Below are positions 11,081 to 50,656 of a stretch of 64,000 nucleotides of DNA, piece by piece. The notes below the pieces were generated by a model. It saw only the letters and a program-made list of their open reading frames with translations, ran no database searches and was not told the origin of the DNA. A program made the position numbers and the translations under genes. Source of the DNA: Betaproteobacteria bacterium Ga0077540. GTDB taxonomy: Bacteria; Pseudomonadota; Gammaproteobacteria; Burkholderiales; Methylophilaceae. How positions within the stretch are numbered: position 1 is the stretch's first letter; the number at the start of each line of letters is the position of its first letter. The stretch spans positions 8,164 through 72,163 of the forward strand of contig LNEP01000007.1 in assembly GCA_001464125.1 (NCBI GenBank). The letters are read 5' to 3'.

Positions 11081-11101
11081 TACAGAGAATAGGATATTTT
11101 C

Positions 11102-11701: not shown

Positions 11702-11749
11702 TAGAATGTGAGCTAAATTTTTAATCAAAAGAGATGTTAGGGGTTTGGT

Positions 11750-12112: not shown

Positions 12113-12128
12113 TTAAGAAACAAACACT

Positions 12129-12158
12129 TAAAAGCCACGCAATTGCGTGGCTTTTTTA
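12129..12158. terminator. Bidirectional intrinsic terminator
   Basis: aaaagccacgc-aatt-gcgtggctttttt between convergent genes. Confidence 0.85.
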
Positions 12159-12170
12159 ATGGATAGCTAT

Positions 12171-12518
12171 TTAGAATTCACCAGTGGTGATGAGGCGTAT
12201 CAGATAAAACGCGCCAATCGCCATCATGATGTACATCGGAATATCGCCTGCTTTCGATTTTTCGGTCTTGGAAGGCGAGGATGTCCATCGGTTAAACATC
12301 CAGGCGGCAAAAATGATGACCGGAATCATCAGCATGCCAGTGGTGGATTCAAATAATCGCCCAAACATAGATTTAAGCCAACCACCATCTTTAAAAAACT
12401 CAATTCCAAGACCAATCAAACCAATCAGTATTAATAAGAAAGATACAATGGAAATAAGGGTGCTTAGTTTACTGTTGGGATCTATCTTGGCATTCTTGGC
12501 ATACTTATTTGGATCCAT
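12171..12518 (-). CDS. Hypothetical membrane protein (about 3 TM)
   Basis: ORF with three hydrophobic segments and a GGAGGA RBS, immediately downstream of nlpD. Confidence 0.75.
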   Translation of the reverse strand: MDPNKYAKNAKIDPNSKLSTLISIVSFLLILIGLIGLGIEFFKDGGWLKSMFGRLFESTTGMLMIPVIIFAAWMFNRWTSSPSKTEKSKAGDIPMYIMMAIGAFYLIRLITTGEF

Positions 12519-12544
12519 CAATGCTCCTCCTCGTCAGTGCAAAT

Positions 12545-13486
12545 TTATGAGTTGGGCGTTAGGTATTTTGCTGGGTCAACTGATTTACCTTGCTGCCTAA
12601 TCTCAAAATGTAGCTTAACAGAGTTAGTGTCTGTGTTGCCCATTTCTGCAATCTTTTGTCCAGCAGCCACAATTTGGCCTTCTTTAACTAGCAATTTACT
12701 ATTGTGTGCATATACTGACAAAAAAGTTTTGTTGTGCTTGATAATCACTAAGTTGCCGTAGCCTCGCAAGTCCGAACCGCTGTATATCACTTTGCCGCTA
12801 CTTGCTGCATTCACTGCCTGCCCAGAGGCGCCCGCAATATCAATACCTTTGTTTGACGCTTCGTTAAAACTAGCGATGACTTTACCATTGGTGGGCCAAA
12901 TCCAATTGATGCTGTCATCACTAGCAACTTTGGCTTCTGCAGGTTTCGCAGTTGTTTCCGGGCTGGTGGTAGGTTTAGTGGCCGCAACCTCGGTGGGTTT
13001 GGCTGTGCCGCGATTCAGTGCTTCTAAGCTATAAGGTTCACGTACTGCTTTAGGTTGTGAAAGTATGGGTGTTACTGCAGGTGTGATGGTTTTGGTTTCG
13101 CTAGCTATTGGCTCAGATTTTATAGGTGTAACAACAACACCGTCCTCGGTCGTTGATGCTGGTGCTGACTTCTCCGTATTACCATTTGCCGGCAAGTTAA
13201 GCTTTTGGCCAATCTTGATTGCGTAAGGTGGGCTTAAATTGTTGACGCTGGCAATTTCTTTATAGTCATAGCCAAACTCTAAGCCAATGGCATATAGCGT
13301 ATCGCCTTTTTTAACGGTGTAACTATTAGGGCGCCAGTCTGTACCTGATTTATCAGCTGCGCTAGTTTCAGGCGCGTTTGGTTTGTTGACGGACGCATTT
13401 CGATCAATCACTGGCGCAGGCGGACTACTTGCACATGCGGCTAAACCAATATAAATTACGACGAGAAATAGTTTTTGTAAAATCAT
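12545..13486 (-). CDS. nlpD: Lipoprotein NlpD (LysM + M23 peptidase-like)
   Basis: Lipobox LAAC, LysM YTVKKGDTLYAI, and M23 motifs KGIDI, YAHN and LHFEIR. Confidence 0.92.
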   Translation of the reverse strand: MILQKLFLVVIYIGLAACASSPPAPVIDRNASVNKPNAPETSAADKSGTDWRPNSYTVKKGDTLYAIGLEFGYDYKEIASVNNLSPPYAIKIGQKLNLPANGNTEKSAPASTTEDGVVVTPIKSEPIASETKTITPAVTPILSQPKAVREPYSLEALNRGTAKPTEVAATKPTTSPETTAKPAEAKVASDDSINWIWPTNGKVIASFNEASNKGIDIAGASGQAVNAASSGKVIYSGSDLRGYGNLVIIKHNKTFLSVYAHNSKLLVKEGQIVAAGQKIAEMGNTDTNSVKLHFEIRQQGKSVDPAKYLTPNS

Positions 13487-13490
13487 ACAG

Positions 13491-14162
13491 CTATGCGGTT
13501 GTGCCACCCAATAGAGGCACAAATTTAACGGTTTCCAATTTAGTTTGTTTGAACTCTGAAGTGGTACGTTCTATTAGATATAACGTTTGTGAAGTAGTCC
13601 CCACCGGAATCACCAACCTACCACCAACTGCTAATTGCGCAAGTAGCTCTTCCGGAATGTGGCTGGCAGCAGCAGTCACGATAATGCCATGAAATGGGGC
13701 ATACGCGGATAAACCAATACTGCCGTCGGCATGATCAAGCTTGATGTTGCTGCATTTGAGTGTGCGCAAATGGCTACGTGCTTTCATTACTAAGGGACGT
13801 ATGCGCTCAAGTGAAAATACTTCATCGGCTATTTTAGATAACACTGCCGTTTGATAACCACAGCCGGTGCCAATTTCCAGCACTTTACCTAATGCGCCGC
13901 CGTTACGTAACACTTCTGTCATACGGGCAACAATGTATGGTTGCGAAATAGTTTGACCAAAGCCAATTGGCAGAGAGACATCTTCGTAAGCACGAATAGA
14001 CAGCGCTTCATCCACAAAAATATGGCGCGGAATCTCACCCATGGCAGACAGCACCAACTCATCTTTAATGCCTTGTTCGCGCAAGCGTGTGAGCATGCGG
14101 TCACGCGTGCGTGATGAGGTCATGCCAATGCCGGATTTAGAAGAGGGTCTGAGTAGTGCCAT
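13491..14162 (-). CDS. pcm: Protein-L-isoaspartate O-methyltransferase
   Basis: [22 protein letters not shown] and FVPL. Confidence 0.96.
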
Positions 14163-14167
14163 GGTGT

Positions 14168-14911
14168 TTACTTACTAATCCAATCTTTCAGTTCCGACAG
14201 TTGACTGTGTTTGGTTAGATCTACCTGAATGGGTGAAATCGAGACATGGTTGTGTGCGATTGCATAAAAGTCGGTACCAATACCACCATCATTAGGTTGT
14301 CCTGCTGCGCCCACCCAATACACGGTCTCGCCACGAGGCGTTTGCAGCTGAATCACAGGTTCGGCCTTGTGTCTTTTGCCTAAGCGAGTGATAGAACGCC
14401 CTTGAATGGCTTCATACGGTACATCGGGCACATTGATATTAAGTAGTGTGGGCGACTTTAACGCGCTTTGAGCATAGTGCTGCACAAGTTCAACCGCAAT
14501 TCGCGCAGCCGTTTCAAAATGCGTGGCATTGTGTTGCGACATAGAAACGGCAAAAGAAGGAATGTCGAGCAGATAACCTTCCATCGCTGCGGCCACGGTG
14601 CCAGAATAAATGGTGTCATCCCCCATGTTGGCGCCGTCATTAATGCCGCTGACGACCATGTCTGGCATTTCGTCCATTAAGCCAGTGAGTGCAATGTGTA
14701 CACAATCGGTTGGCGTGCCATTCACGTAGTAAAAGCCATTACTCGCCTTTCGCACGCTCAATGGGCGGTCTAAGGTAAGTGAGTTGCTGGCGCCGCTCCG
14801 GTTTCGTTCAGGAGCCACTACGGTGATGTCGGCAATTTTGGCTAAATGTGTCGCAAGGATGTTGAGGCCAGGAGCAAAATAGCCATCGTCGTTAGAAATT
14901 AAAATTCGCAT
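14168..14911 (-). CDS. surE: 5'/3'-nucleotidase SurE
   Basis: [20 protein letters not shown] and YSGTV. Confidence 0.97.
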
Positions 14912-14957
14912 GCTTTAATTATAATGGTTTTAGTAGTCTTGTCAGCGCGCATATAGC

Positions 14958-15311
14958 CTAAGTTTTCTGGTTAGGACGAGATTTTATCCATTTTGCATAA
15001 AAAATCGCACAGCCAAAAAAAATAAGACTCAGCAAGACTTCTAAAAGCGCCAATCCTGATGACATCCCATGTTCGGACCATGCGCGCACCACCCCTTCGG
15101 TGAAGTAGAACAAAATGAGCATCGATGCCCATTGATAGGTGTAGCGTTTGCCGCGCAGAATACCAAACAGTGGTAGCAGTAATGGCAACACTTTGAGTAC
15201 TAGCATACTCCCGCCCGATTTTAACGGCGCTAACCAGAGTTCCCATGCCACGCACAGCATAATAAGCGCAATCAGGCTAACGCTTGCTCCTATGTGTAAG
15301 GTGCGTATCAT
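14958..15311 (-). CDS. DUF2069-like membrane protein
   Basis: WELWLAPL, LKVLPLL and YTYQWASML..YFTEG. This family commonly lies next to wrbA. Confidence 0.75.
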   Translation of the reverse strand: MIRTLHIGASVSLIALIMLCVAWELWLAPLKSGGSMLVLKVLPLLLPLFGILRGKRYTYQWASMLILFYFTEGVVRAWSEHGMSSGLALLEVLLSLIFFGCAIFYAKWIKSRPNQKT

Positions 15312-16015
15312 GCTCGACACGCTTTTGCCATGTTTACCAATGCTGCACGTGCTTCCTCAGCGTTGGTAATGGGCGTTTCGAAATCAAAACGCAGACGCTG
15401 TGCGGATTTGGTATGGGCGCGTACATCAAAGCCAAAGGTATCAATGCCTATCATTTCTGCCGCGTTGGCATCTACCCCATGATAATGTTGGCAATACGCT
15501 AGCAAGTTGTGCGCGTGGTCGTGATTCATATGTTCAATAATGCTGGGTTCTTCGATAAAAAGTGGGTGGGTCGGCAATTGCATATCTGTACCTGGTACCC
15601 AGCCCATTTTGCCGAACCCAGCAATATAGCGAGCTTGCGTGATGTACAGAGTGTAGAAGGTAAAGTCGTGCATATCAAAATACTGCTCGGCTTGTGGCAA
15701 ATAGCGCAAATAACGTTCACGCATCAGTATGTTTTGCTTATCGGTTTGTTCCGCTTTGGCAAGCAGGGTCAATCTGGCATTGGCTTGCAAATCCTCTTCA
15801 CCGGCAAATACCACCAACGAGACATGCGCATTATGCGCGATGTTTTTGGTATGCTCAGCAATGGTGCTAATCAGTATGGTAGGCATGCCCTGATGGTTCA
15901 ACACAAAAGGTGCTACCGAGCCAAACGGATAGCCGGTAAATTTGGCCGAGTGGGTAGACAGAATGCCGGAATGCGTGCTGAATAAAAACCGTTGTGCTTC
16001 TTGCGTGAGTGACAT
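15308..16015 (-). CDS. HugZ-like / pyridoxamine-5'-phosphate oxidase-like split-barrel protein with DUF2470 domain
   Basis: GYPFGS, S.IAEHTKN, RYIAGFG and IIEHMNHDH. Confidence 0.82.
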   Translation of the reverse strand: MSLTQEAQRFLFSTHSGILSTHSAKFTGYPFGSVAPFVLNHQGMPTILISTIAEHTKNIAHNAHVSLVVFAGEEDLQANARLTLLAKAEQTDKQNILMRERYLRYLPQAEQYFDMHDFTFYTLYITQARYIAGFGKMGWVPGTDMQLPTHPLFIEEPSIIEHMNHDHAHNLLAYCQHYHGVDANAAEMIGIDTFGFDVRAHTKSAQRLRFDFETPITNAEEARAALVNMAKACRA

Positions 16016-16019
16016 GATG

Positions 16020-16622
<603 letters not shown>

Positions 16623-16635
16623 TTAAAAGATTGAA

Positions 16636-19600
16636 TTAATCAAAACTGAAACTATACACAACATCGAGCGCATTCTCTGAACCTGCCTTGGTTTCAATGG
16701 CAATTCTTCTGGTAAATTGATAGGTCAGCTTAGCCACATTCAATAAGCCAAAAATACTTTTTTCGTAGCCTATCGTCAATTGACGGTTGATGCGCTTGCC
16801 CACATTCACACTGTAGTTAGTAGCGTTGGTCCCCTTGATATCCAGACTATCCAGCCCTGCGATATTGGCAATGCGTGATTGTAATGGCACAGAATCACCT
16901 TGCGACAGCAATGCTCCAGCAGCAACAGAAAGTAAGGCTAATTCACTGTTGCCAGCCTCGGACATCGGGCGCCCCAGCACCAATAGAGACAATTTGTCGT
17001 CGTTGGTGGTTTCCGGCTCGGAGACTAATTTAAGTTGAGGTGTTTTGATATCACCGCTGAGTTTTACCCCTACCTTAGTCGGCTCTAGGTTACGCATGGC
17101 CACCACATTAAGCCCTGCGTTAGAGACTGGGCCACTCAGGTTGATTTGACCAGTTTCAATGTTCAATAATTGTCCATAAGCTAGGTAGGTGCCATTGACA
17201 TCTAATGCCCCAAACGCCTCTAACTGCGAGATGGGACCTGTCAACCTTACTTGCCCACTTAGTGCGGCATTCAGGCCTTGTCCGCGCAGCATAAATTGAC
17301 GGCTTTCATCAAAAGGCATGGTCGGTTTTTTGCCAAAATCAATATTCAGTGTGCCCAATGCCAGCCCCAGCTTGCTGGCGGTTTGCTGGTCTTCTTTGCC
17401 TAAAATAATAACATCGTCGTCCAAGGTAGGGCGGCCAGCTTTGGGTAGCTCGAACAAACCGCGGTGCACTTTAAACTGACCATTAATCAGTGCGCGTTGG
17501 CCATTGACTTGCATGTCACCATCTCCACTGAGCACTACAAAACGATCGGTGCGTGAGAGTGCCGTTAATCGATTGGCCTGCACTTTCAAGGCGAGTTGGA
17601 CTGGGCGTTGAATAAGATTTGCCTTGCCTTGTGCGCTCAGCGTGCCGGTTTTGCCAGCAAAATCCAGTTGTTTGACGGTAAATGTCTCCTCAGCAAAAGT
17701 CGCATCCAGTCCGCCTTGATTCAGGACAACGCCTTGGCTGGGAATGAGTATAGACAGGTTAGAACCACGCATATAACCATTGAGTTTTGGTGCGGCTAGG
17801 GTGCCGTTACCATCCACCATCAAGGATAATGCACCTTCAAGATGAGTATCCGCATCGTGTAGTGTTAACCAGTTTAAATGTTGCAGATTGGCCTCAGCGT
17901 GCAAGGATAAAGGCGCTTGCTGGCTCAGGATAAAGCCGCTGTTGGTGCTGGTGATGGACGTGCTTAAATTAGCTTGTGCGGTGCCAGCATAGCTAGATTG
18001 CAGTTGGGTCTCTGCCATGATTTGGTTATTCATGGCCTTTACGCGCAATGCCAAGGTGCTTAGCCCCATGGGTTGTTTGGTTTGTTGCACGGCATCAAGC
18101 AGCACAATATCGCCATCCGCGCGCGTCAGTGCAATCTCCGCATTGATTTGCTCTGCTATTGCAACTTGCCAATCGCCATTTAAAGTTAAGTTATGTTCAA
18201 GATGTGGTGTGTTAAAGCCCAAGTATGTTTGCAGTGCCTGTAGCGGTAATTGTTGTATACGACCTTGGGTTTTGATGATGGGTTTACTCGTTGTTTGATT
18301 GTTGGAAGCCTGATACGAGAACGTATCCATTTGCACTTGTCCCTGCGCGACCTGCAATTGTAGGTCTTTTAATAAAAAGCCGTGGTGGGTGCTAAACGAC
18401 ATGGGAGCCGGTTGTGATAAGCGTATTGTTTCTTTATCTGCACTGGTCAGGCTTTGAATCGTCCCTTGCCAACCTTGTGCATCAAGCCCCCCAGTAATCA
18501 CACCGCTCAAACCAAAACTTGCGTCTTGCTTATCGGCATTCTCGATATTGAGCGTCAGCTGATGTTGAGCGAGACTACCTGTTAAATCAAGCTTGGCATT
18601 GATCGGTTTGGCATCCGCATCATTGGTATCACCTTTGCGTAGACCTTGAATGACGATTGAATTTTCTAAACTTGCAGTATCTATGGATGAAAACTGGCCT
18701 TTGGCTTGCACTTGTTTCATGCTGAGTTGGTTGGGTAAACGCAGTGCTGCTCCATCCAGTTGATATTGATATCGGTAGCTATTGTCAGCATGTGTAATCT
18801 CACCATTGCCTGTTATCGTGCCCGCAAAACCTGCCATGAGTTGATCTAAAGCTGGAAAATCAGCCACCCAGCGCAACGTGTTGCGTTGGCTATCGTTAGG
18901 GTTGAGGCCGCCATTTAATTTAAATTGATTGCCCGCCAGTTGCGCAGTTAAATCCAAATCAGATAACACAAAGTCTATCAATGTTGCTTTTGCATTGAGC
19001 GTGAGTGGGTGTTGGTTGATTTCACTTTGACTAGATTGCACAAGCACTTGCATGGGCTGTTGGCCACTGAGTGCGCCTTGCGCATCAAGCGATATATTGA
19101 GCGCACCTTTGAGTTGAGGGTGTATGTAGGCACTATTCAACGCTTTTAGTTGTACTTGCAAGGTCGCAGGCATTTGGTCTTGCAAGCTCACCGTGGCATC
19201 CAGTGCAATCAAGTTGGTTTGCTCTGCTTCAGTCGCTGGGGCAATGAAAAAGTCGCTGGCCGCTGGCTGATAGTGGTGTAAAGCATGCAGTTTCATTTCG
19301 GCCAAGTCGCCGCTGATATCGGCTTTCAATTGGTACGGGGTAGTACCCGTGGTTTGTTCTGCCTGCAACATGCCATTGAGGGCAAACGGCTTTTTATTGG
19401 TCATGTCTACGCTGGTCTGTAATTGTCCCCAAGGGCTTTCTGCTACTTGCAATGCAAGCTGTAAGGTTTGCGGGTTAGCGCTAAGATTAAAGGTGATAGC
19501 CTTTAGGGTTTGTGTTTCATTGGCTTGCTCAATCACCAGTTCATCAATGAGCCCTTGTTTTAATAAGATGGGCAAAGGTAAATCAAGGCGTTCTGGCAGT

Positions 19601-35819: not shown

Positions 35820-36952
35820 TACAACACCATCATATTGGCGAAGAGCCGATTGCGCTCGATGCACGCGCCCTAGGCGATTACTGGCCTGGCATTCAGTTGT
35901 ACTATCCACCCGTTAAATATGCCCCAAGTTTGGGTATATACGAGGACATGGACCAAGCGTCAGCACGCATGAAAAAACATGCGCACTTTACCAATGCCCA
36001 TACCCTGATTTTTGACTTGGAAGACGGCTGTCGCCAAAAAGAAATGAGCCGTGAGTTGCTGCGCAAAGAGTTGCCGCAGCTCAGAAAAATCAATGAACGC
36101 GTCACCATTGCCATTCGCGCCAATTCGTTCCGTACCGATGAGTACGAGGAAGATATGAAGCTAGTGCGCGATATGGGCGAATATATTGATGTGGTGATGC
36201 TGGCCAAAGCTGGCGAGGCTTACGGCGCTGCAGAAGTCCGCGATTTGTCTAGCTTTTTAATCAGTGTGAATCCAGAAATCACGATTCAGCCGATTATCGA
36301 ACATCCAAAGTCGCTCAAAATTGCACCGGAACTAATGCAATACAACACAGTGAAGCATGTGGTGTTTGGTATTCACGATTTCTCCAAAGCAATGGGTATT
36401 CATATCACCCCAGAAAACTGGATTGAAGAGCTGTTCTACTTTATTAACCAACTGCTATTTGAAGCACGTATTGCCGGTAAAGGTGTGATTGGTGGGGTAG
36501 AAACGCTGATTGGCAGCAATATCATGCCAGAAAAGTTCCTGGAGCCACATGATGTGCGCCGTTGGTTAGATTTGCATGGCGATAATGAATCGCGCGTGGT
36601 GTACAAGCATGCTTGCAAAGAAGCAGCCATGGGCTTAACTGGCAAACAGGTGATTCATCCTGGACATATTCATTTATGCAAAACCGCTTACACGCCATCT
36701 CCCACCGAAATTACGCAGAAAGTTAGCATTTTGAAGGCGGCGATTGAAGCTGATGCTTTGTTGGGTGGGGCTATTAAATTTGAGGGTGAAATGCTAGACC
36801 CACCCATGTTTGGTAAAGCATTGCAAACCCTGTTACGCGCACATGCCTTGCGTGCGCTAAAAACCAGCGATATGGAATTTGCGCTACATGTATTGCAGTT
36901 GTTGCCGGCGCAAGTGGTGCGTCAGAACTGGCCATATGGAGTACTTTTATAA
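35816..36952 (+). CDS. CitE/HpcH-superfamily acyl-CoA lyase (divergent, 378 aa)
   Basis: FDLEDG, IRAN, IIEHP, FGIHDF, GKQVIHP and GEMLD with Asp. Translationally coupled to sdhE and to the ligase. Confidence 0.8.
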   Translation: MIQHHHIGEEPIALDARALGDYWPGIQLYYPPVKYAPSLGIYEDMDQASARMKKHAHFTNAHTLIFDLEDGCRQKEMSRELLRKELPQLRKINERVTIAIRANSFRTDEYEEDMKLVRDMGEYIDVVMLAKAGEAYGAAEVRDLSSFLISVNPEITIQPIIEHPKSLKIAPELMQYNTVKHVVFGIHDFSKAMGIHITPENWIEELFYFINQLLFEARIAGKGVIGGVETLIGSNIMPEKFLEPHDVRRWLDLHGDNESRVVYKHACKEAAMGLTGKQVIHPGHIHLCKTAYTPSPTEITQKVSILKAAIEADALLGGAIKFEGEMLDPPMFGKALQTLLRAHALRALKTSDMEFALHVLQLLPAQVVRQNWPYGVLL

Positions 36953-38598
36953 TGTTTACACAGTTTCCTCAATGGGTTTGGAACATTCCCGGTTACTTCA
37001 ATATCGGCGTGGCTTGCACTGATACGCACCTCAACACTTCGCGAGCCGATATCGTGGCCATGATTGTGGAGGACGATGCCTTAGGTACGTCCAGCATCAC
37101 CTTTGCGGAGTTAGCACAGCGTACAGATCAGTTTGCGCAAGTGCTGCGTAATTTAGGGGTGAAGGTGGGCGACCGCGTGCTGATTCGCTTGCCCAATAGT
37201 TTGGATTATCCCATTGCATTTTTGGGCGCCATGAAAATGGGTGCGATTTCGGTACCAACCTCCACCTTGCTCACGGCAGAAGAGGTGGCGTATCTGGCAA
37301 AAGACTCTGGTGCAACCGTATTGGTGACCGATGCGGCAGCTTGGAATGTAATGGCGGATGAAATTACCAAAAACACAGCCGATATTGCCAATTTAAAACA
37401 CGTGCTGGTGACTCAGTTGGAAAGTGTTTCAGAGTTCAAATCTCCCGCAGGTTTAAATGTACAAGGCCTTGAAGACAGCATCTTAGACATCCAACAAGTG
37501 GAACCCGCGCATGCCACCAAAGCCGACGATCCAGCCTATCTGGTGTATACCTCTGGTACGACGGGTTATCCTAAAGGCGTATTGCATGCGCACCGTGCGT
37601 TGCTAGGCCGCCAGCCCGCAGCTCAGTATTGGTTTAATTACAGCGAGCAGATTCAAGACCGTATCATGCACTCCGGCAAGTTCAACTGGACCTATGTGCT
37701 AGGGACTGGCCTAATGGATCCCTTGTATTTAGGCAAAACAGTGATTGTGCATGAGGGCAAAAATGATGCACAAAAATGGTTGGACCTGATTAACAAACAT
37801 CAAGCCACTATTTTTATTGGGGTGCCGACCATTTACCGCCAACTCCTTCAAAAAACAACCGCTACGCAGGCCGATATTCCAAGCTTGCGCCATTACATGA
37901 GTGCTGGCGAGCATTTGTCTGACGAGGTGCTGGAACAATGGCGCACTCGCTTTGGTTTGGATATTTATGAAGCGGTGGGCATGAGCGAGTTTTCCTATTA
38001 CTTATCCCAGAGTAAATACCGGCCAATCCGTCCCGGTTCTGCTGGCTTTCCACAACCTGGACATGATGTGCAATTGCTTAACCCAGAAACACTACAGCCA
38101 GTGCCTGTGGGCGAAGAAGGTATGATTTGCGTCAAAGATACTGACCCTGGTTTATTTTTACGGTATTGGAATTTAGACGAAGAAACCGCCAAATATAAGC
38201 ACGATGGCTACTTTTTCTCTGGCGATTACGCAAAATATGATGCCGATGGCTACATTTGGTTCTTAGGGCGTAAGGATGACATTATCAAAAGCTTTGGTTA
38301 TCGCGTCTCGCCCTATGAAATTGAACGTGTTTACAAAGGGCACCCAGCGGTCGCCGATTGTGCAGCGGTGGGGGAAGAGATTGAGAAAGACAAATTGCTG
38401 GTGGTGATTTATGTGATTCCCAAAGCCGATATAACTGTAAACCCAGATGAATTGTTGGCCTATGGCAAACAACATTTGGCGGCTTATAAATCCCCCAAAA
38501 CGGTGTATGTGGCCAAGGATTTCCCGCGCACCAAGAATGGTAAAATATTGCGTAAAGATATCAGCCCAACTATTGCCACTGCAAAAAGCTCAAGATGA
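36952..38598 (+). CDS. Acyl-CoA synthetase (AMP-forming; medium-chain/aromatic-ligase-like)
   Basis: YTSGTTGYPKG, SAGE, GMSE, SGD, GRKDD and PRTKNGK. Confidence 0.9.
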   Translation: MFTQFPQWVWNIPGYFNIGVACTDTHLNTSRADIVAMIVEDDALGTSSITFAELAQRTDQFAQVLRNLGVKVGDRVLIRLPNSLDYPIAFLGAMKMGAISVPTSTLLTAEEVAYLAKDSGATVLVTDAAAWNVMADEITKNTADIANLKHVLVTQLESVSEFKSPAGLNVQGLEDSILDIQQVEPAHATKADDPAYLVYTSGTTGYPKGVLHAHRALLGRQPAAQYWFNYSEQIQDRIMHSGKFNWTYVLGTGLMDPLYLGKTVIVHEGKNDAQKWLDLINKHQATIFIGVPTIYRQLLQKTTATQADIPSLRHYMSAGEHLSDEVLEQWRTRFGLDIYEAVGMSEFSYYLSQSKYRPIRPGSAGFPQPGHDVQLLNPETLQPVPVGEEGMICVKDTDPGLFLRYWNLDEETAKYKHDGYFFSGDYAKYDADGYIWFLGRKDDIIKSFGYRVSPYEIERVYKGHPAVADCAAVGEEIEKDKLLVVIYVIPKADITVNPDELLAYGKQHLAAYKSPKTVYVAKDFPRTKNGKILRKDISPTIATAKSSR

Positions 38599-43197: not shown

Positions 43198-43226
43198 GCT
43201 TCGACCTTAATCAGCAGGCTAATCGT

Positions 43227-43628
43227 TTGCAACCACAAGATAATAGCCCATTCGGTAAGTTTAGATGGAAAGACTGGCGTGTAATGTTGCCAGTCTTGCT
43301 ATTCATTATTGCCTTGATTTATTTAGGGGTTCACTACCACATCAATTATGAGGTTATCGCCGGAGGCACTGTGGTAATCGGGTTGATTTCGGGTGTATTT
43401 GCTTGGCTGGTGGGGGTGGTAGGTCTGATCCCGATTATTGGGCCATTAATTGTAAAGGTGCTTAGCCTGTCGGTTATATGGCTATTGAATGCCCTGGGCT
43501 ATATCGTTTCGTATATTGCTATTCGTCGCGGCTATAGTCAGGATGTACTTACCTACCGTGGACTTACCATTGCCTTAATCATCGGGATTGTGATCGGTTT
43601 CGTATTAGGCAGTATGTTTTCCAACTGA
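43227..43628 (+). CDS. Hypothetical membrane protein
   Basis: Multi-TM hydrophobic ORF. Its 3' end overlaps the convergent ketosynthase stop by 24 bp. Confidence 0.7.
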   Translation: MQPQDNSPFGKFRWKDWRVMLPVLLFIIALIYLGVHYHINYEVIAGGTVVIGLISGVFAWLVGVVGLIPIIGPLIVKVLSLSVIWLLNALGYIVSYIAIRRGYSQDVLTYRGLTIALIIGIVIGFVLGSMFSN

Positions 43629-44864
43629 TTTCTTAAAAATCAGCGTTGCACCTGTGCCACCAAACGCAAACGAGTTGGACATTGCGTATTCTAAGTTATC
43701 TATCTTTTGTGATTGATTAGGCACATTATTTAAATCACATTTGGGGTCTGGTTGTTCCAGATTGATGGTGGGGGGGAGTTCGTTACGTTGCATGCCCAAA
43801 AGTGTAATGATGCTTTCCAGCACACCCGCTGCACCCATTAAATGACCATGCATGGATTTGGTAGAGCTAACAGCCAGTTGGTAAGCGTGCTCACCAAAAA
43901 TCTGTTTAATGGCGTTGGTTTCGGTTTCATCGTTAAATTTTGTACCGGTGCCATGTGCATTAATGTATTGAATCAATTGAGGATTTAAGCCAGAGTCATC
44001 TAATGCTTTCTGCATGGCTGCGGCTTGGCCTTCTACTGATGGTACGGCAATGTGTTTAAAATCATTGGCAGCGCCATACCCTATAATTTCCGCATAAATA
44101 TGTGCGCCTCTAGCTTGAGCGTGCGATAACTCTTCAAGAATCATTGTAGCTGCACCTTCACCAATGACTAGCCCTGTGCGGTTGGCAGAAAATGGCTTGC
44201 AAGATTTACTGATATCTTCTTTATCTTCTTCGGCCAGTGTGCGAATGGCTTCCCAAGATTTAATACTGGCGTAGGCCAAAATGGCATCGGTGCCGCCGGC
44301 TAATGCTACATCAATCTCGCCATAGCGAATATCTTTCATGGCTTGGCCTATGGACACGGCGGAAGAAGAGCATGCGGTGGAAAAGGTGAGATTGGGGCCA
44401 GAAATCGAAAAATGGGTGGCAATGGCAGCAGCAGGGCTGTTGTACATACACATGAGAACAGTATAGGGTTTTAGGCGATTTTCACCTTCTACAAACAATG
44501 TTTGGTAGCCGTCTTCTACTGAATGGATGCCCCCCATACCTGTACCTACATACACACCGGTACGGTCTTTTACCACCTTATCCATATCTAAATCCGCGTG
44601 TTTTACCGCCTCTTTGCTGGCATGTAAGGCCATTTGGCCAACACGGTCTAGAATGGAGTAGTCACTCTTTTTTTCAAAATAGTGGCCTGGGTCAAAGTCT
44701 GCTTGTGCTGCTACTTTGCAGTTGAGTTTGTCTAGATATGGACCTACAAACTGTTTGATGCCGGATTTTCCGGCAAAGATGTTTGTCGCCAATTCATCAA
44801 CGGTGTTGCCCAGTGGGGATACCAAGCCAAACCCGGTGACTACGACGCGCCGTTGATGCTTCAT
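43605..44864 (-). CDS. Beta-ketoacyl-ACP synthase II-type, NodE-like
   Basis: Intact Cys-His-His triad (TACSSS, NAHGTGT, KSMHGHL) and SNSFAFGG. The segment AGGTDA...KSWEAIRTLA resembles NodE (KSWEALRVLA) more than housekeeping FabF. Confidence 0.88.
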   Translation of the reverse strand: MKHQRRVVVTGFGLVSPLGNTVDELATNIFAGKSGIKQFVGPYLDKLNCKVAAQADFDPGHYFEKKSDYSILDRVGQMALHASKEAVKHADLDMDKVVKDRTGVYVGTGMGGIHSVEDGYQTLFVEGENRLKPYTVLMCMYNSPAAAIATHFSISGPNLTFSTACSSSAVSIGQAMKDIRYGEIDVALAGGTDAILAYASIKSWEAIRTLAEEDKEDISKSCKPFSANRTGLVIGEGAATMILEELSHAQARGAHIYAEIIGYGAANDFKHIAVPSVEGQAAAMQKALDDSGLNPQLIQYINAHGTGTKFNDETETNAIKQIFGEHAYQLAVSSTKSMHGHLMGAAGVLESIITLLGMQRNELPPTINLEQPDPKCDLNNVPNQSQKIDNLEYAMSNSFAFGGTGATLIFKKSVGKHTA

Positions 44865-44873
44865 CTTTCTAAC

Positions 44874-45134
44874 TTATTGTTTTGAAAGCACTAAGTCATG
44901 TGTCACATCAATCACATCTTGAATGGTAACTAAGTGCTCGTAGTTTTTGGGGAAAGAAATGTTGTATTGATGCTCAATACTGAATATCACTTCAAGAAAG
45001 CCAAACGAATCAATATCGAGTTCTTTGAGTGGGCGATCTGGGGATAATTTATCGATGCTAATGTTTTTTTCTTTGGTGAAAATGTCGGTCAAAAACGATT
45101 TGATTTCGTCTTTTGTGGCAATTTTATTGCTCAT
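44874..45134 (-). CDS. Specialised acyl carrier protein
   Basis: 86 aa with the phosphopantetheine Ser in LKELDIDSFGFLEV. Lies directly upstream of the ketosynthase. Sequence unlike housekeeping AcpP (GADSLD). Confidence 0.85.
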   Translation of the reverse strand: MSNKIATKDEIKSFLTDIFTKEKNISIDKLSPDRPLKELDIDSFGFLEVIFSIEHQYNISFPKNYEHLVTIQDVIDVTHDLVLSKQ

Positions 45135-45232
45135 TCAAGGGGTTCCTTCACGGTATTCGCCTTTTGGGCTGTATTTTTTATAAATTTCTAGAATATAATG
45201 CCATAAAGCTTTGTATAAAGTGTGAGATTTTA

Positions 45233-46162
45233 ATGGATATTTCTGATTTTGGTTTAAGTAATCATTTTAAGCAGTTATCATTAAAATATGATGAAAGCCA
45301 TGAAGTATTATGGACATACTTTAATCAGAAAAACATCATTCCTTGCGCCAATCACGAGATTGTCCATGAGCTTCTTCAGCATCAGCAAGAAGTAGAAAAA
45401 ACTGGCGGTGTATTGTATTCCAATGACCGCATATATCAAATTCGTTACTCCGTAGCAGCCTCATTGACCCCAAATGTGTTTAATTTGGGTGGTCATCTTG
45501 CGCTTATCCGTGAGTTGGCCATGAACAGAAATAAAGAAGCGCTACTTTACTATGCGATTAAAGGCATTGACGCTGTACATAGCAGATTGTCTCGATTCAA
45601 TAACTCCCCGATTGTTAATATCACCCTAGTGCAAGGCTTGGCGTTGGGTGGTGGTTTGGAGGGTGCGTTGGCCAGTGATGTGATTATTGCCGAGCGTAAG
45701 AGCTTTTTTGGCTTTCCAGAAATTCTGTTCAATATGTTCCCAGGCATGGGTGGCTATAGCTTGGTGGCGCGTAAAGCTGGCATGAAGGTGGCCGATGAGA
45801 TGATTCTTAAAGGTAAACAATACACCGCAGAACAAGCTTATGAGCTTGGGATTGTGGATGTGTTAGTAGAAGACGGCCAAGGCGAAAAAGCGGTTTACGA
45901 GTGGATTGAAAAAAACAAGCGCTACTTTAATGGTTATTTGGCTGCACAACGTGCCAAAAATAGAGTGAATCCAATCGCTTACGATGAGCTGCTAGATATT
46001 ACAACAATCTGGGTGGATGCTGCACTTAAGTTGGGTGAGCGTGAATTTAGTATTATGGATCGCTTTATTTACAGCCAAGAAAAACAATATCTCAATGCAC
46101 TATCACCACAAGCGCCTGCTGTGGCTGATAACGTTGTTTCCTTTAAACGCACCGCTACTTAA
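45233..46162 (+). CDS. rpfF: DSF synthase RpfF-like enoyl-ACP dehydratase/thioesterase (crotonase family)
   Basis: VFNLGGHL, LVQG.ALGGGLEGAL and GFPEILFNMFPGMGGYS. Both catalytic Glu are present, and the C-terminal helices ELLDIT.IWVDAAL match RpfF. Convergent with an RpfC-like kinase. Confidence 0.88.
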   Translation: MDISDFGLSNHFKQLSLKYDESHEVLWTYFNQKNIIPCANHEIVHELLQHQQEVEKTGGVLYSNDRIYQIRYSVAASLTPNVFNLGGHLALIRELAMNRNKEALLYYAIKGIDAVHSRLSRFNNSPIVNITLVQGLALGGGLEGALASDVIIAERKSFFGFPEILFNMFPGMGGYSLVARKAGMKVADEMILKGKQYTAEQAYELGIVDVLVEDGQGEKAVYEWIEKNKRYFNGYLAAQRAKNRVNPIAYDELLDITTIWVDAALKLGEREFSIMDRFIYSQEKQYLNALSPQAPAVADNVVSFKRTAT

Positions 46163-46178
46163 TTTTGATTAAACTGCG

Positions 46179-48389
46179 TTAGGTGTGCGCAGACAGTTGT
46201 TTTTCTTCAGCAGCCAAGTAATCAACAAACGCTAACTTAGTTTTTTGGTAGGCATTGCTTGCTTGTGCATACAATGATGGCACTTTGTATATTTCATTTG
46301 GCGTGATGTCGTCCAATTCCACGCAAATTTTGCTTAACTCATCAGCACCAATATTAGTCGCACTGCCCGCAATCGCATGAGCGGTCTCACTAATGTTGGC
46401 AAAGTCTAATGCGAGTACGTAATTTTTGAGCTCGTCCAAATTCCTATCGGTGTCTTCTATAAACCCGTGAATCAGGCCAGCTACAAAGCGAGGGTTTTTG
46501 CTGATAGATGCAAGCTCTTCAAGTCTGGATGCGTTCAATACCAATTGATTGGCACCAACGCTAAATGCAACTACATCGGCATCATCCGGTGTTTGTGCGC
46601 TTGCAGAGGTAAATGCCAACACTGGAGCAGCTTCGCGATATTGTTGCTGTTTAGATTTGGCCACAACCTCTTCAATGGCAAAATTAAGCGCATCAATTTG
46701 AATTGGTTTGGTTAAATAAGCTGCAACACCCAGATCATCAAACTCAGCAATAGTATTTTGCGTTGCATCTGCACTTAAGATAATGGCTGGGACTTGTGAT
46801 TGCCCTACATTGATTGCTTGATAAATGCGTAAAGCTTCTAAGCCACCCATCACTGGCATGTTGCAATCTAAAATCATCAAGTCGTAAGTGGATTCTTCTA
46901 ACTTATCCAGTGCTAGCTGGCCGTTTTTCACAATATCAAATTGATGTTCACCCAGTGCGAGCATTTGAGACAAGATAAGAATATTAGTGTCGTTGTCTTC
47001 TGCCACCAAAATACGGCAAGGTTTTTTCTTGCTGGCTTGCATGGCTTTTTTGAATGAGATGATTTCTGAAGAAATTTGGCCACTCTCGTTTTCTGCTTCG
47101 ACGATACCCAGTGGAATCTCAAACCAGAATGTTGAGCCGTTGCCGAGCTCACTCTCAATCCCAATTTCACCTTGCATCAGCTCAACTAGTTTTTTGGAGA
47201 TGGTGGTGCCTAAACCTGTGCCACCAAATTTATATTTGATCGATTCTTCCGCTTGGGTAAAACTCTCAAAAATGTGGGGGAGGGACTCTTTAGCAATACC
47301 AATACCCGTATCTTTTACTTCAAAACGGACAGTTGCATCGCTATCTGATTGTTTGTTTGCACTCACACAAATTTTTACATAACCCTGCTCGGTAAACTTC
47401 ACCGCATTACCCACTAAGTTAATCAGCACTTGTTTGGTGTGTAGCAAGTTGCCATGAAGTTTTAGTGGGGTATCTTGCGCAATTTCGTAGTCAATCGCTA
47501 TCCCTTTTTGTGCAGCTTGCGTTTCAAATAGATTGACTGTGGTAAGAATTAAATTGTGCAGATAAAAATCTTCCTCGTAATGGGTGGTTTTACCGCTTTC
47601 AATTTTGGATAAATCCAACACATTGTTGACTAAATCAAGCAGCACTGTGGATGAGCTCTTCATCACGTTAAATAACGTTGCGTTATTTTTATCTAGGTTG
47701 GATGCTTCAAGTAAGCTACAAGCACCAACGATACCATTGAGCGGGGTGCGGATTTCATGGCTGATATGAGAAAGGAATTCACTCTTGGCACGGCTGGCTG
47801 CTTCGGCCTTGTAAGTGGCCTCCTTTAATCGGGAGAGCAGTGCAAGGGCGTACATCGGGATTGATACTAAGGTAAATAATAGGCCGTAAAAACCTGTCAT
47901 ATGGTTTTGCCAATACGGACTGTTCAAACTGGCGAAAATAAATCCTGACAAGCTTGCAATATAGGTTGCAATCAATAATTGACGGCCATAACGGAAGCCA
48001 TAACCGATAATGAGCCACAAATAAACGCCAATAAAGACACCGCCAATATCATTGGTAAGGTGTACCGCGAATGATGTAGCCAACACATCAGATAGCATAG
48101 TGATTAATTGGCGATTTCTGCTTGGGGCTGAGTTTAATCTTGTGTGAATTAGAAATGCCAAAGAGGCGATGCTAAACAGGGCCAATGCAACATAAATAAT
48201 CGTTTTTACTTGATCATATGACGCCGATACGAATATCAGCGTTAGGCTAATAATAAATAGCCTTAAAACGGCTTGTTGATACTCGTCACCATGCTTGTTG
48301 AACTCTACTAGTTTGATTGAACGCGTGATGACGCTGAGAACTTTTTTGCAGGGCATCAAAATGCTATTGAGAGCTAAACTCAAATTCAT
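46179..48389 (-). CDS. rpfC: RpfC-like hybrid sensor histidine kinase (TM sensor-HisKA-HATPase-REC-HPt)
   Basis: N-terminal DEYQQAVLR followed by about 5 TMs with W..IGYGFRYG, then SHEIRTPLNG, NLVGNAVKF, DTGIG, GGTGLG, REC LDCNMP and HPt AHAIAGSA. Confidence 0.85.
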   Translation of the reverse strand: MNLSLALNSILMPCKKVLSVITRSIKLVEFNKHGDEYQQAVLRLFIISLTLIFVSASYDQVKTIIYVALALFSIASLAFLIHTRLNSAPSRNRQLITMLSDVLATSFAVHLTNDIGGVFIGVYLWLIIGYGFRYGRQLLIATYIASLSGFIFASLNSPYWQNHMTGFYGLLFTLVSIPMYALALLSRLKEATYKAEAASRAKSEFLSHISHEIRTPLNGIVGACSLLEASNLDKNNATLFNVMKSSSTVLLDLVNNVLDLSKIESGKTTHYEEDFYLHNLILTTVNLFETQAAQKGIAIDYEIAQDTPLKLHGNLLHTKQVLINLVGNAVKFTEQGYVKICVSANKQSDSDATVRFEVKDTGIGIAKESLPHIFESFTQAEESIKYKFGGTGLGTTISKKLVELMQGEIGIESELGNGSTFWFEIPLGIVEAENESGQISSEIISFKKAMQASKKKPCRILVAEDNDTNILILSQMLALGEHQFDIVKNGQLALDKLEESTYDLMILDCNMPVMGGLEALRIYQAINVGQSQVPAIILSADATQNTIAEFDDLGVAAYLTKPIQIDALNFAIEEVVAKSKQQQYREAAPVLAFTSASAQTPDDADVVAFSVGANQLVLNASRLEELASISKNPRFVAGLIHGFIEDTDRNLDELKNYVLALDFANISETAHAIAGSATNIGADELSKICVELDDITPNEIYKVPSLYAQASNAYQKTKLAFVDYLAAEEKQLSAHT

Positions 48390-48430
48390 TTTTTAATACT
48401 CCTCAAAAGTTAATATTTTTTTATGATTTA

Positions 48431-48446
48431 AGCAAATGATATGCCA
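48431..48446 (-). promoter_or_regulatory. Sigma-54 (-24/-12) promoter of the rpfC-like gene
   Basis: The minus strand reads TGGCATATCATTTGCT, which is GG-N10-GC. It lies about 40 bp upstream of the ATG and its GAGGAG RBS, with an AT-rich tract further upstream. Confidence 0.72.
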
Positions 48447-48677
48447 TTGTAAAAAATAAAATAAAATTCATAAAAAACATATAGATATGATGGGTTGAAG
48501 TTGACGAGTGGGTTGGGAGAAGTAGGGAAATCATCACTAGTGACGGAAATCTAACTATTAGTCCAATTTATATTTGTTTTTTTCGATTTGGATAGCTAAT
48601 TGTTTAAGGTTAATATTCAACTTGTTTTGAAGTAAGAGCTTATTTTATTTGGAATGTGACGTGTCTTAGGGGCGGTA

Positions 48678-49550
48678 ATGGCAACTCAGGAAGAAATCGA
48701 ACAACACTACGATATTGATAACGAATTTTATGCATTAATTCTTGATGACAAGTATCTGGGTTATACCTGTGGGGTATGGGATCAGGCAGATACCATTGAG
48801 CAATCTCAAGCTGATAAGTTTGCAAGGCTATGCAGATATGCACATGTTAAGCCCAATAGTAAGGTACTAGATGTAGGTTGTGGTTGGGGTGGATTATCAA
48901 CTTATATTGGAGAAAACTTTAGCAACACAAAGGTGCATGGCCTAACACTGAGTACTAAGCAGCTAGAGTTTATAAAAAATGCAAAAAATCCAATTGCTTC
49001 AGTTGAACTAAGTGCGTGGCAGAGTTTTGCTGTACCAGAACCAAAATTTGATGCTGTTATTTCAATTGGATGCTTAGAGCACTTTGCCACCTATGAAGAT
49101 AGTATTTCTGGTAAACAAAGAGAGATTTACAAAAAATTCTTCGATTGGTGTTTAAGTGTAACAACGCCAGAAGCTTATGTTGGCTTGCAGACTATTATTA
49201 TCACTAGGTTACCTAATAATATTTCTGAATTGAGGGATTCGTGGTTAGTTCACAAGATTTTCCCTGGCTCTGCATTAGCTTCAATCAGCGATATTCAGGA
49301 AGCTGCTACAGATAAGTATGAAATTTCGGAAGTAAGCAGAATTGGTCATGATTATGTGCCAACTTTACAGGCTTGGATTGATAAAATGGTAGTCAATAAG
49401 AATGAGTTGTTTTCAATGTACGGAGAAGAGCTTTACAACCAATATATTGAATATTTCGAAGGTGCGAAAAGATGTTTCCAAACTGGCTATTTTGATTTAT
49501 ATCAGGTTTCGCTAAAACGTGCGCTGCCTACAAGAATTTTCAAAACATAA
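48678..49550 (+). CDS. CFA/mycolic-acid-methyltransferase family SAM-dependent fatty acyl methyltransferase
   Basis: HYD..NEFY, YTC, VLDVGCGWGG, SIGCLEHF, IFPG and DY..TL..W. Short form of 290 aa. Confidence 0.88.
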   Translation: MATQEEIEQHYDIDNEFYALILDDKYLGYTCGVWDQADTIEQSQADKFARLCRYAHVKPNSKVLDVGCGWGGLSTYIGENFSNTKVHGLTLSTKQLEFIKNAKNPIASVELSAWQSFAVPEPKFDAVISIGCLEHFATYEDSISGKQREIYKKFFDWCLSVTTPEAYVGLQTIIITRLPNNISELRDSWLVHKIFPGSALASISDIQEAATDKYEISEVSRIGHDYVPTLQAWIDKMVVNKNELFSMYGEELYNQYIEYFEGAKRCFQTGYFDLYQVSLKRALPTRIFKT

Positions 49551-49588
49551 AAATTGAATTGTCGATTAAGACAAAGTAAAAGACTTAA

Positions 49589-50656
49589 ATGCGTGGTTAT
49601 TTTATTAAGATGGCAGAGTTATTACCTGCCATTTTCTTTTTTGCAGGCTTTGCATGGGATGCGCTCACCATAGGGCGCAACGTTGCCACTTCTGATCTAT
49701 TCATTTTTACCGCGTATTTACTGGCAGCAGGCTCTTTGTTATTCATTATGAGTCGCCCCAGTTTTATCTTGGCGGATGAAGCACAGGTACCTAAACCATT
49801 CCGTTGGTTATTTAGTACGAATTGGCCGTATTTGGGGCTGCAGTTTTTCTTTGGCAGTTTGCTCAGCGCCTTATTTATTCTCTATTTTAAAAGTGCTAAC
49901 CATGCGTTGGCGATCCTGATGACAGTGTTACTCGGCGTGTTGCTGGTGGCCAATGAATTTTTAGAAAATGCCTACAGGCGCTTTACACTCAGTTGGGCCT
50001 TGTTTGGGCTGTGCGCCATGTTGTTGTTTAATTTTTTGCTGCCATTTTTGCTGGGTAGCGTGCATGCCATTTGGTTTTATCTAAGCACGTTATTGGGGGC
50101 AGCCATGGTGATTTTTCTGTACTCCAAAACTCCCCAACATCTGGGCAGTATTTTGCCGGTTTGGTTGATTGCTGGCTTTTTAATGTTTGCTTATGCGATT
50201 GATATGATTCCGCCTGTTCCACTGGTGAAGCGTGAAATTGCAATTGCTTATGATGTTAAAAAAGAGGGCGATCATTACTATTTAACGCAGCAGCGTGTGG
50301 GTTGGTGGGCGATATGGAGCAAAACCAGTAACCGTCTGACTCTAACTCCAAGCCAGCGTGTATATTGCTTTTCATCTATTTTTGCGCCTTCTGGTCTTGA
50401 AACGCGTTTGTATCACAATTGGCAAAAGCGTACGGACAAAGATGGGTGGAAAAGTATCCAGCGAGTAGGGTTTGATGTCAGTGGTGGTCGTCAAAATGGG
50501 TATAGGGGGTATACCTACAAGACAAACTTATCACCTGGGAAATGGCGTGTCAGTGTGGAAACCGAAAACAAAAAAACGATTGCAGTACAACCGTTTACAG
50601 TGAGCACAGTGAGCGAGGCGACAAAGCCGCCTCGCTACGTGGTATTCAAATATTAG
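49589..50656 (+). CDS. DUF2914-domain membrane protein
   Basis: N-terminal TMs (GFAWDALT) and an Ig-like C-terminus with YCFSSIFAP, GGRQNGYRGY and GKWRV.VE. Confidence 0.75.
   Translation: MRGYFIKMAELLPAIFFFAGFAWDALTIGRNVATSDLFIFTAYLLAAGSLLFIMSRPSFILADEAQVPKPFRWLFSTNWPYLGLQFFFGSLLSALFILYFKSANHALAILMTVLLGVLLVANEFLENAYRRFTLSWALFGLCAMLLFNFLLPFLLGSVHAIWFYLSTLLGAAMVIFLYSKTPQHLGSILPVWLIAGFLMFAYAIDMIPPVPLVKREIAIAYDVKKEGDHYYLTQQRVGWWAIWSKTSNRLTLTPSQRVYCFSSIFAPSGLETRLYHNWQKRTDKDGWKSIQRVGFDVSGGRQNGYRGYTYKTNLSPGKWRVSVETENKKTIAVQPFTVSTVSEATKPPRYVVFKY

Follow-up and report, generated by a model that had tools for sequence, protein, structure and literature searches.

The 64,000 nt stretch of contig LNEP01000007.1 analysed here (the window) belongs to a freshwater, methanol-utilising bacterium of the Methylophilaceae, whose genome assembly comprises 2.33 Mb and is 88.6% complete. 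Within it lies a block of five genes that, on balance, appears to be a fatty-acid quorum-sensing system belonging to the DSF (diffusible signal factor) family, equipped with a private acyl-handling trio and made polymorphic by two exchangeable cassettes; the chemistry proposed for it is read from sequence. According to the open reading frame (ORF) list and a domain search, the gene order is KS<-ACP<- ->RpfF-like crotonase-> <-RpfC-like hybrid kinase<- ->short CMAS-family methyltransferase, where KS is a ketoacyl synthase and ACP an acyl carrier protein; the methyltransferase (MT) is of the type that uses S-adenosylmethionine (SAM). These are exactly the genes and orientations named in an original prediction, made from the DNA letters alone, which had proposed a DSF-type locus with its own acyl-chain building and tailoring enzymes.

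The crotonase and the kinase

The best solved relatives of the crotonase are 5fus (Bcam0581), 6dgn (Cronobacter RpfF), 7zq7, and 3m6m (RpfF of Xanthomonas campestris), with E-values of 1e-42 to 5e-46. Ordinary enoyl-CoA hydratases lie far behind these DSF synthases, the next match being at only 9e-17. Both catalytic glutamates (in GGGLE and FPEI, corresponding to Glu141 and Glu161 of X. campestris RpfF) are invariant in 12 relatives aligned to Bcam0581, and the protein scores 327 bits against the model NF006452, above its cut-off of 177. Since that cut-off is passed and the one of the RpfF equivalog model is missed (see below), the enzyme is considered a member of the RpfF family and not an orthologue of the Xanthomonas protein. 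On this sequence evidence it is an RpfF-family, DSF synthase-like enzyme that would form a cis-2 fatty acid. Translation probably begins at ATG 45233, because homologues are 301-316 aa long and a start at TTG 45113 would overlap the start of the ACP gene. The RpfF/RpfC pair as such is widespread: when the class was sampled evenly, 61 of 400 other genomes had a crotonase of this kind.

The kinase combines approximately five transmembrane (TM) segments, located in residues 38-188, with HisKA, HATPase, REC, and Hpt domains in a single protein (Pfam and TM prediction). The best PDB match of its REC domain is that of RpfC (3m6m_D, 3e-16), followed by a match at 2e-11. In X. campestris, this domain of RpfC binds RpfF. 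It is thus RpfC-like, and its N-terminal end would be expected to sense a fatty acid by the precedent of Xanthomonas, in which DSF binds the N-terminal sensor of RpfC (PMC5391125). In the 80 loci closest to that of the window, taken from species-representative genomes, a convergent kinase of RpfC-like type adjoins the crotonase 70 times. The RpfF and RpfC identities given in the original prediction are therefore well founded, both by the separation between DSF synthases (approximately 1e-46) and other crotonases (1e-16) and by the REC domain, for which RpfC is the best match.

Upstream of the kinase gene, a TGGCAT-N5-TTGCT motif of the -24/-12 type is found at the equivalent position in seven of eight block loci, although spacer identity is just 40-50%. 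By our estimate, which assumes equal base frequencies, approximately 0.004 occurrences per locus are expected by chance. The motif was not found in the four plain loci (those without KS, ACP, and MT) that were scanned, nor in L116, L122, or L037; the start coordinates used are approximate for several loci. Because it is kept at the same relative place among block loci, the kinase gene of block-type loci is probably sigma-54 dependent.

No gene for a REC-HD-GYP protein (rpfG) is present on the window contig. A candidate of the RpfG type is encoded on contig C12 of the same genome, and it is 66% identical to the protein encoded beside the block in genome G217; in contig L036, too, a REC-HD-GYP gene adjoins the block. 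Similarly, there is no rpfB beside the crotonase, whose neighbours are the ACP and the kinase. The AMP-ligase gene at 36952-38598 was considered as an rpfB candidate and rejected, as its product is below every FadD/RpfB cut-off and the gene is part of an acnB-fumarase cluster that is syntenic in block-less genomes too. Separately, contig L118 (positions 1-16918) carries an rpfF/rpfC pair among genes of replication and recombination (RPA, IstB, DnaB, YqaJ, and Toprim), and this pair may be riding on a phage or plasmid-like element. Its crotonase is 62% identical to that of the window, and its kinase has no Hpt match.

Additional acyl-handling genes

The KS has an intact catalytic triad (Cys165 in ACSSS, and the histidines of HGTGT and HGHLMG), and both its N- and C-terminal ketoacyl-synt domains are recognised by Pfam. 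Its score against the fabF model TIGR03150 is 460 bits, below the cut-off of 493.75. In a phylogenetic tree it falls into a Methylophilaceae-specific clade, far from canonical FabF and FabB, in which the KSs of DSF loci are monophyletic (support 100/99). The ACP has a weak PP-binding match (27.9 bits) and is far below the cut-off of the AcpP models, and its serine is invariant in the alignment. Elsewhere in their genomes, complete relatives have the canonical pair acpP-fabF (117 and 650 bits) as well as a FabB-like gene, to which the KS and ACP of the locus are additional; the latter two are present only in block-bearing genomes. The acpP-fabF pair, present in four of four relatives checked, was not found in the window's own 88.6%-complete assembly, in which the only KS genes found are that of the locus and a FabB-like gene at C3:219328-220542.

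A dedicated KS and ACP, as originally predicted, are thus present as extra copies relative to the housekeeping acpP-fabF of relatives. The further claim that the pair builds a private acyl chain probably holds only in part: with no more than KS and ACP encoded, it would perform a single round of capture and elongation and not make the whole chain. A likeness of the ACP-KS pair to NodF/NodE was set aside, as the KS tree places the KS in a Methylophilaceae-specific clade; NodE and NodF sequences were not part of that comparison. A further cluster with three KS-like and two ACP-like genes is located in G023 (C1:2542766-2558407), approximately 0.6 Mb from the DSF locus of that genome.

The MT matches PF02353 (CMAS) with 188 bits over residues 4-277 and has the SAM-binding motifs. 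Aligned to CmaA2 and E. coli CFA synthase, it keeps Cys31, Glu134, and Tyr226 of the bicarbonate site, and the histidine is replaced by Gln171. This replacement is common to all block MTs and to all members of the subfamily, so that none has the complete Cys-Glu-His-Tyr site of cyclopropane synthases. The N-terminal lipid-binding domain of phospholipid CFA synthases is lacking, and the alignment is confined to residues 118-375 of the E. coli enzyme. Identity to the cfa-like paralogue of the same genome is 24%. Members of the subfamily also occur as solo genes in M. versatilis 301 (G228) and on a Novimethylophilus contig. The MT tree is unresolved at its base and gives no origin for the window's MT allele. 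Nothing supports the idea, part of the original prediction, that the signal is polyunsaturated.

Conservation of the block in the Methylophilaceae

The block is found in G023 (Methylophilaceae bacterium 11), G014, G148, G217, and L147 (Methylotenera sp. N17), and on metagenome contigs L114, L116, and L213. Its gene order is seen again in at least 10 genomes or contigs besides the window, and the arrangement is not due to chance. Additionally, in G014, L114, and L116 the block lies on the opposite side of the DUF2914 gene with its internal order unchanged, and it therefore moves as a unit. The short metagenome contig L214 shows only the crotonase-kinase-MT part, and L034 ends before the MT. In G142 and NORP104, ACP and KS lie beside the rpfF/rpfC pair and no MT was seen, while an MT is present in nine of nine core-clade loci whose contig extends to its position. 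Overall, the KS, ACP, and MT additions mark one clade of Methylophilaceae, with approximately 12 loci, two of them from cultured isolates. A KS at least 64% identical to that of the window occurs in 7 of 201 sampled Methylophilaceae genomes. All computational checks proposed with the original prediction speak for it, among them co-occurrence in other genomes: in this clade the three genes do stay beside rpfF/rpfC through rearrangements.

In most genomes of the genus Methylotenera, the corresponding site is plain, with the order acnB - crotonase -> <- kinase - DUF2914 - rlmJ and without KS, ACP, or MT. Proteins of these plain loci are 45% (crotonase) and 35% (kinase) identical to those of the window, compared with 87% for AcnB. 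In the crotonase tree, the KS-linked enzymes form one clade, to which two KS-less loci are sister, followed by the plain Methylotenera clade.

Hypervariable cassettes

Comparison of closely related strains reveals that parts of the block are replaced as units with borders at the level of domains. For instance, the DNA of Methylotenera sp. N17 and G023 is 98-100% identical over two tracts, one reaching from acnB past KS, ACP, and crotonase to take in the catalytic kinase part, the other running on from DUF2914, with a difference in gene content between acnB and KS. Between these tracts, N17 positions 8278-9997 are only 40-70% identical to G023, a segment that includes the MT in full, the spacer, and residues 1-~140 of the kinase; the breakpoints lie at kinase residue ~140 and just past the MT. 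At the protein level, ACP, crotonase, and the C-terminal part of the kinase (HK_C) are 100% identical between the two strains, whereas the N-terminal part (HK_N) is 64% and the MT 54% identical. The window shares the cassette type of N17 (HK_N 81%, MT 81%). Relative to G023 and G148 it has a divergent tract at 47.9-49.7 kb, with 46-66% DNA identity on a background of approximately 80%. Between strains, HK_N is 59-64% identical where HK_C is 81-100% identical.

A second cassette (cassette 1 in Table 1) is evident from contigs L114 and L015, which are approximately 94% identical overall (KS 95%, HK_C 98%, MT 97%) and in which the sensor end of the kinase is 75% identical. Here DNA identity drops to 52-55% over the ACP, the adjoining spacer, and the crotonase up to about residue 180, corresponding to 46% protein identity for the ACP and 54% for the N-terminal half of the crotonase. 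Across 10 loci, MT identity follows HK_N after control for HK_C (partial r 0.74), whereas MT and HK_C are hardly correlated (r ~0.1); these values are descriptive only, as the pairs are not independent.

Similar variation within communities is suggested by metagenome data. In X3 and X4, two metagenome DNA runs of separate studies, the contig breaks fall at 47804-47852 and 49606-49636, and alternative sequences continue from there. The contig with the window's cassette has a depth of 12.9 versus approximately 33 for the flank in one run and 7.9 versus approximately 19 in the other (~40%). Both the breaks and the reduced depth fit the coexistence of several cassette types on one shared flank.

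Exchange of the MT together with the sensor end of the kinase among close strains suggests, as far as sequence can indicate function, strain-specific signal "dialects". The co-replacement of MT with the kinase sensor end, and of ACP with the crotonase N-terminal half, would fit an MT that shapes the signal and a crotonase that works on the private ACP.

Origin of the trio and recurrence elsewhere

The KS clade of the locus is nested in a Methylophilaceae-wide KS clade that belongs to another operon, one without a kinase. It consists, in order, of class-III aminotransferase, (arginase-like), EamA half, alpha/beta hydrolase, ACP, KS, FemAB/GNAT-like, EamA half, and in two genomes (G164 and G119) a short MT of the same subfamily closes the operon. 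Because KS, ACP, and the MT subfamily are together in this different operon too, the trio looks like a reusable acyl-tailoring module, which would have become linked to rpfF/rpfC a single time in this family. NCBIfam has no name for any specific part of the aminotransferase-ACP-KS operon, which may make an N-acylated amine lipid. Even a 1.27-Mb genome has a reduced form of it, from which the arginase-like and FemAB/GNAT-like genes are missing. Block-bearing genomes have neither the aminotransferase nor the GNAT genes of the ancestral operon.

The possibility that the block is a foreign island was rejected: the nearest relatives of KS and crotonase are inside the Methylophilaceae, and a marked AT richness is confined to the ACP and MT parts.

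The association of rpfF with acyl enzymes, which was part of the original prediction, recurs in other lineages in other gene orders. Among 60 RpfF-type loci in a class-wide gammaproteobacterial sample from other families, seven have a KS, ACP, or CMAS gene within 7 kb. A KS directly adjoins the crotonase in L165 and L189, and ACP-KS and a long CMAS gene lie between kinase and rpfG in L193 and L200. An ACP alone is found near the RpfF locus in L207, and a CMAS gene in L194. In L210, from an unrelated genome, a short MT of the Gln variant, 46% identical to that of the window, is located between kinase and crotonase. A further arrangement was seen in a distant proteobacterial metagenome-assembled genome (L113:3-4582), with the order KS<-ACP<- ->RpfF-like crotonase, followed by a PlsC-type acyltransferase and a DUF2279 lipoprotein and without a kinase. 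Here, it seems, an enzyme of the RpfF kind has been taken over for lipid synthesis and not for signalling.

Proposed mechanism and alternative explanations

We infer the following chemical steps, ligand, and pherotype function. The FabF-like KS would take its acyl primer from general fatty-acid synthesis and condense it with malonyl units bound to the private ACP (ACP*), and housekeeping FabG would reduce the product to 3-hydroxyacyl-ACP*, so that this intermediate would be held on a private carrier recognised by the crotonase. While the chain is bound to ACP*, the short CMAS-type MT would modify an isolated cis double bond in it, adding a carbon from SAM in methyl, methylene, or cyclopropane form. 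The RpfF-like crotonase would then dehydrate the chain to its cis-2-enoyl form and hydrolyse the thioester, and a tailored cis-2 fatty acid would be freed. This acid would be sensed by the matching membrane end of the RpfC-like kinase, whose gene would be read from the sigma-54 promoter, and a REC-Hpt phosphorelay would lead to the REC-HD-GYP cyclic di-GMP phosphodiesterase encoded elsewhere in the genome (C12). Swaps of the kinase sensor end with the MT, and of the ACP with the crotonase N-terminal half, would generate signal and receptor variants (pherotypes). In its most specific form, the proposal is that the private ACP/KS and an interchangeable MT make strain-specific methyl- or cyclopropyl cis-2 acids, that the sensor end travels with the MT, and that several types occur per community. 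This form is advanced tentatively, as a possibility that falls short of being probable.

Several observations weigh against the proposed system. The carboxyl-conjugated cis-2 bond is a poor CMAS substrate, so that a second, isolated double bond would be needed. Neither a ketoreductase nor a dehydratase or malonyl transferase is encoded in the block, and the crotonase reaches only 183 bits against the NCBIfam RpfF equivalog NF053515, under its cut-off of 550. KS, ACP, and MT are not needed for a working pair, given that most Methylotenera genomes are without them at the same site; the KS and ACP descend from a non-signalling lipid operon of the Methylophilaceae; and the MT may act on a substrate unrelated to the signal, as its subfamily also occurs as a solo gene. 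The joint replacement of segments could also be hitch-hiking at a recombination hot spot, because the swapped segments are physically contiguous. A predicted complex of the crotonase alignment with that of the private ACP had a score of 0.01, which gives no verdict and is evidence neither way.

The occurrence of the plain pair without the trio, the derivation of KS and ACP from an aminotransferase-hydrolase-ACP-KS-GNAT operon that has no kinase, and the solo MT genes would all be expected if the locus held an ordinary pair that makes DSF or Burkholderia DSF (BDSF) from the 3-hydroxyacyl-AcpP of general fatty-acid synthesis, as in Xanthomonas, next to an unrelated, perhaps quorum-regulated, membrane or secondary lipid module. 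The KS-ACP-crotonase cluster of L113, with PlsC and without a kinase, likewise indicates that such enzymes can serve lipid synthesis. However, the five genes remain together through rearrangements, the ACP is replaced with the crotonase N-terminal half and the MT with the kinase sensor end, and the association recurs in other lineages. Moreover, block-bearing genomes are without the rest of the ancestral operon, which leaves the trio no other obvious partners. An unrelated lipid module is thus considered rather unlikely. Less likely again is that ACP and KS serve insulation only, channelling one elongation round on a separate carrier towards a conventional, unbranched cis-2 signal and so keeping the promiscuous thioesterase of the RpfF-like enzyme from draining the general acyl-ACPs, with the MT acting elsewhere, for example on phospholipids, or being a regulated target. 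RpfF is described as a broad acyl-ACP thioesterase that frees unspecific fatty acids (PMC4517397; PMC13660987), and with no rpfB-type ligase at the locus, other means of limiting the loss of acyl-ACP would be useful; the loci of NORP104 and G142, with ACP and KS and without a visible MT, are also in keeping with such a role. Yet the MT is present in all nine core-clade loci that reach its position, it is replaced jointly with the sensor end of the kinase, and in the unrelated genome of L210 a short member of its subfamily sits between the kinase and crotonase genes.

Finally, the pair might not signal between cells at all and might instead sense fatty-acid stress or turnover, in which case cassette variation would reflect phage or surface selection on a membrane protein. 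In the literature searched, no member of the Methylophilaceae has been shown to make a signal, and the membrane ends of proteins are often fast-evolving. This is nonetheless highly improbable, as the likeness to characterised DSF synthases and to RpfC is specific, and as the swapped parts include a cytoplasmic MT, an ACP, and half an enzyme, for which surface selection offers no explanation. On the whole, the block probably encodes a tailored and polymorphic signal system of the DSF family, with a putative product and chemistry.

Feature coordinates, composition and neighbouring genes

The features of the block are listed in Table 1. With a GC content of 0.409 versus 0.46 for the window, the block is AT-richer than its surroundings, as had been noticed at the outset; the minima are 0.35 in the ACP and 0.37 in the MT, with 0.33 and 0.29 in the spacers between the divergent gene pairs. 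It is directly flanked by orf133 and DUF2914, both multi-TM proteins, which agrees with the membrane-protein neighbours originally described, and acnB is next on the left.

Table 1. Features of the five-gene block, in window positions, and the related Methylophilaceae operon.
Feature	Position	Strand	Description
KS	43605-44864	-	419 aa, FabF-like, both ketoacyl-synt domains
ACP	44874-45134	-	86 aa, DSF serine motif, PP-binding domain
Divergent ACP/crotonase spacer	45135-45232	none	98 bp, GC 0.33; presumed to hold promoters; belongs to hypervariable cassette 1
Crotonase, RpfF family	45233-46162	+	309 aa from ATG 45233; listed ORF 45113-46162
Hybrid sensor kinase, RpfC-like	46179-48389	-	736 aa; ~5 TM, HisKA, HATPase, REC, Hpt
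Kinase sensor (membrane) end, residues 1-~190	47820-48389	-	Hypervariable, from strain comparison
Putative sigma-54 -24/-12 element TGGCAT-N5-TTGCT	48431-48446	-	~40 nt upstream of kinase ATG
CMAS-family SAM methyltransferase (MT)	48678-49550	+	290 aa, no N-terminal lipid-binding domain
Hypervariable cassette 2: kinase sensor end + spacer + MT	47810-49636	none	DNA identity drop vs relatives
Other Methylophilaceae operon	L123:6059-13673 (G164)		Same order in L127-L138

Close strains also differ in the genes they carry between acnB and KS, a second variable spot beside the block. In the window (43198-43604) this spot holds the small 3-TM orf133, in N17 (L147:2461-3609) an OmpA-like gene of 382 aa, and in G148 (L119:5518-8274) an insert of approximately 2.7 kb. 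Contigs from RNA libraries (X18 and X19) span the entire crotonase gene and pieces of KS, kinase, and MT; these contigs are uninformative on transcription, strand, and ends, and no meaning attaches to the parts they leave uncovered.

Significance and comparison with known systems

The usual view is that DSF signals come directly from the general pool of fatty acids and owe their diversity to the choice of primer and chain length. A private carrier and condensing enzyme, combined with SAM-dependent tailoring, would, if true, be an added means of diversifying such signals. In communities that consume methane, Methylophilaceae are key partners of the methanotrophs, and no description of DSF signalling in such communities was found in the literature searched. 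Likewise, searches on DSF or RpfF in Methylophilaceae, Methylotenera, or methylotrophs, or on RpfF with cyclopropane synthase, returned nothing relevant. A DSF locus with a private trio and swappable cassettes is not described in this literature, and its polymorphism is both unexpected and well supported. The idea is directly testable, as the cultured, Lake Washington-type strains N17 and Methylophilaceae bacterium 11, near-identical except for the cassette, amount to a natural experiment.

The rpf cluster of X. campestris (RpfF/RpfC/RpfG/RpfB) resembles the locus in its two-Glu crotonase synthase convergent with a multi-TM HisKA-HATPase-REC-Hpt kinase, in a REC domain most similar to that of RpfC, and in a REC-HD-GYP regulator, which is here in the genome and block-adjacent in relatives. 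In contrast to that cluster, rpfB is absent from the locus and rpfG is unlinked, whereas KS, ACP, a CMAS-type MT, and a putative sigma-54 kinase promoter are added, and the synthase is below the RpfF equivalog cut-off. Burkholderia cenocepacia Bcam0581 (RpfF_Bc, the BDSF synthase, 5fus) and Cronobacter RpfF (6dgn) are the best solved relatives of the crotonase (5e-46 over residues 10-285). Their systems, however, use the cytoplasmic receptor RpfR and not an RpfC-type kinase, and are not known to include a private ACP, KS, or MT.

The MT shares the CMAS fold, the SAM motifs, and the Cys/Glu/Tyr residues with CmaA1, CmaA2, UmaA, MmaA, and E. coli CFA synthase, and its size of ~290 aa is that of the mycobacterial enzymes, which are thought to act on ACP-bound chains. 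It differs from the CmaA, UmaA, and MmaA enzymes and from E. coli CFA synthase in that it is only ~30% identical to them and in that histidine is replaced by glutamine throughout its subfamily.

With regard to polymorphism, two allelic rpf variants (rpf-1 and rpf-2) are known in Stenotrophomonas maltophilia, whose differences lie mainly at the RpfF and RpfC N-termini, the variants of both proteins always going together (PMC4517397), comparable to the variation of ACP, crotonase N-terminus, and kinase N-terminus seen here. No tailoring enzyme is part of the variable segment of S. maltophilia, whereas the whole MT is included in one cassette here and the whole ACP in the other. What is new relative to those variants, as judged from the aligned strains, is therefore the presence of a tailoring enzyme and a carrier protein inside the exchanged units. 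The cassette swaps suggest that a dialect may be changed by exchanging one enzyme together with the binding end of the receptor. Such exchange is familiar for peptide pheromones; we know of no fatty-acid case, and the literature searched yielded only S. maltophilia rpf-1/rpf-2. In comQXP of Bacillus subtilis, the gene for the signal-modifying enzyme is hypervariable, as is the membrane sensor end of the histidine kinase encoded next to it; the two vary in step, and the catalytic part of the kinase is conserved. The likeness to these pherotypes is one of population genetics only, as the comQXP signal is an isoprenylated peptide in a Gram-positive bacterium and the proteins are unrelated in sequence. 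If true, the pherotype reading would give the comQXP and agr specificity groups their first counterpart among lipid signals.

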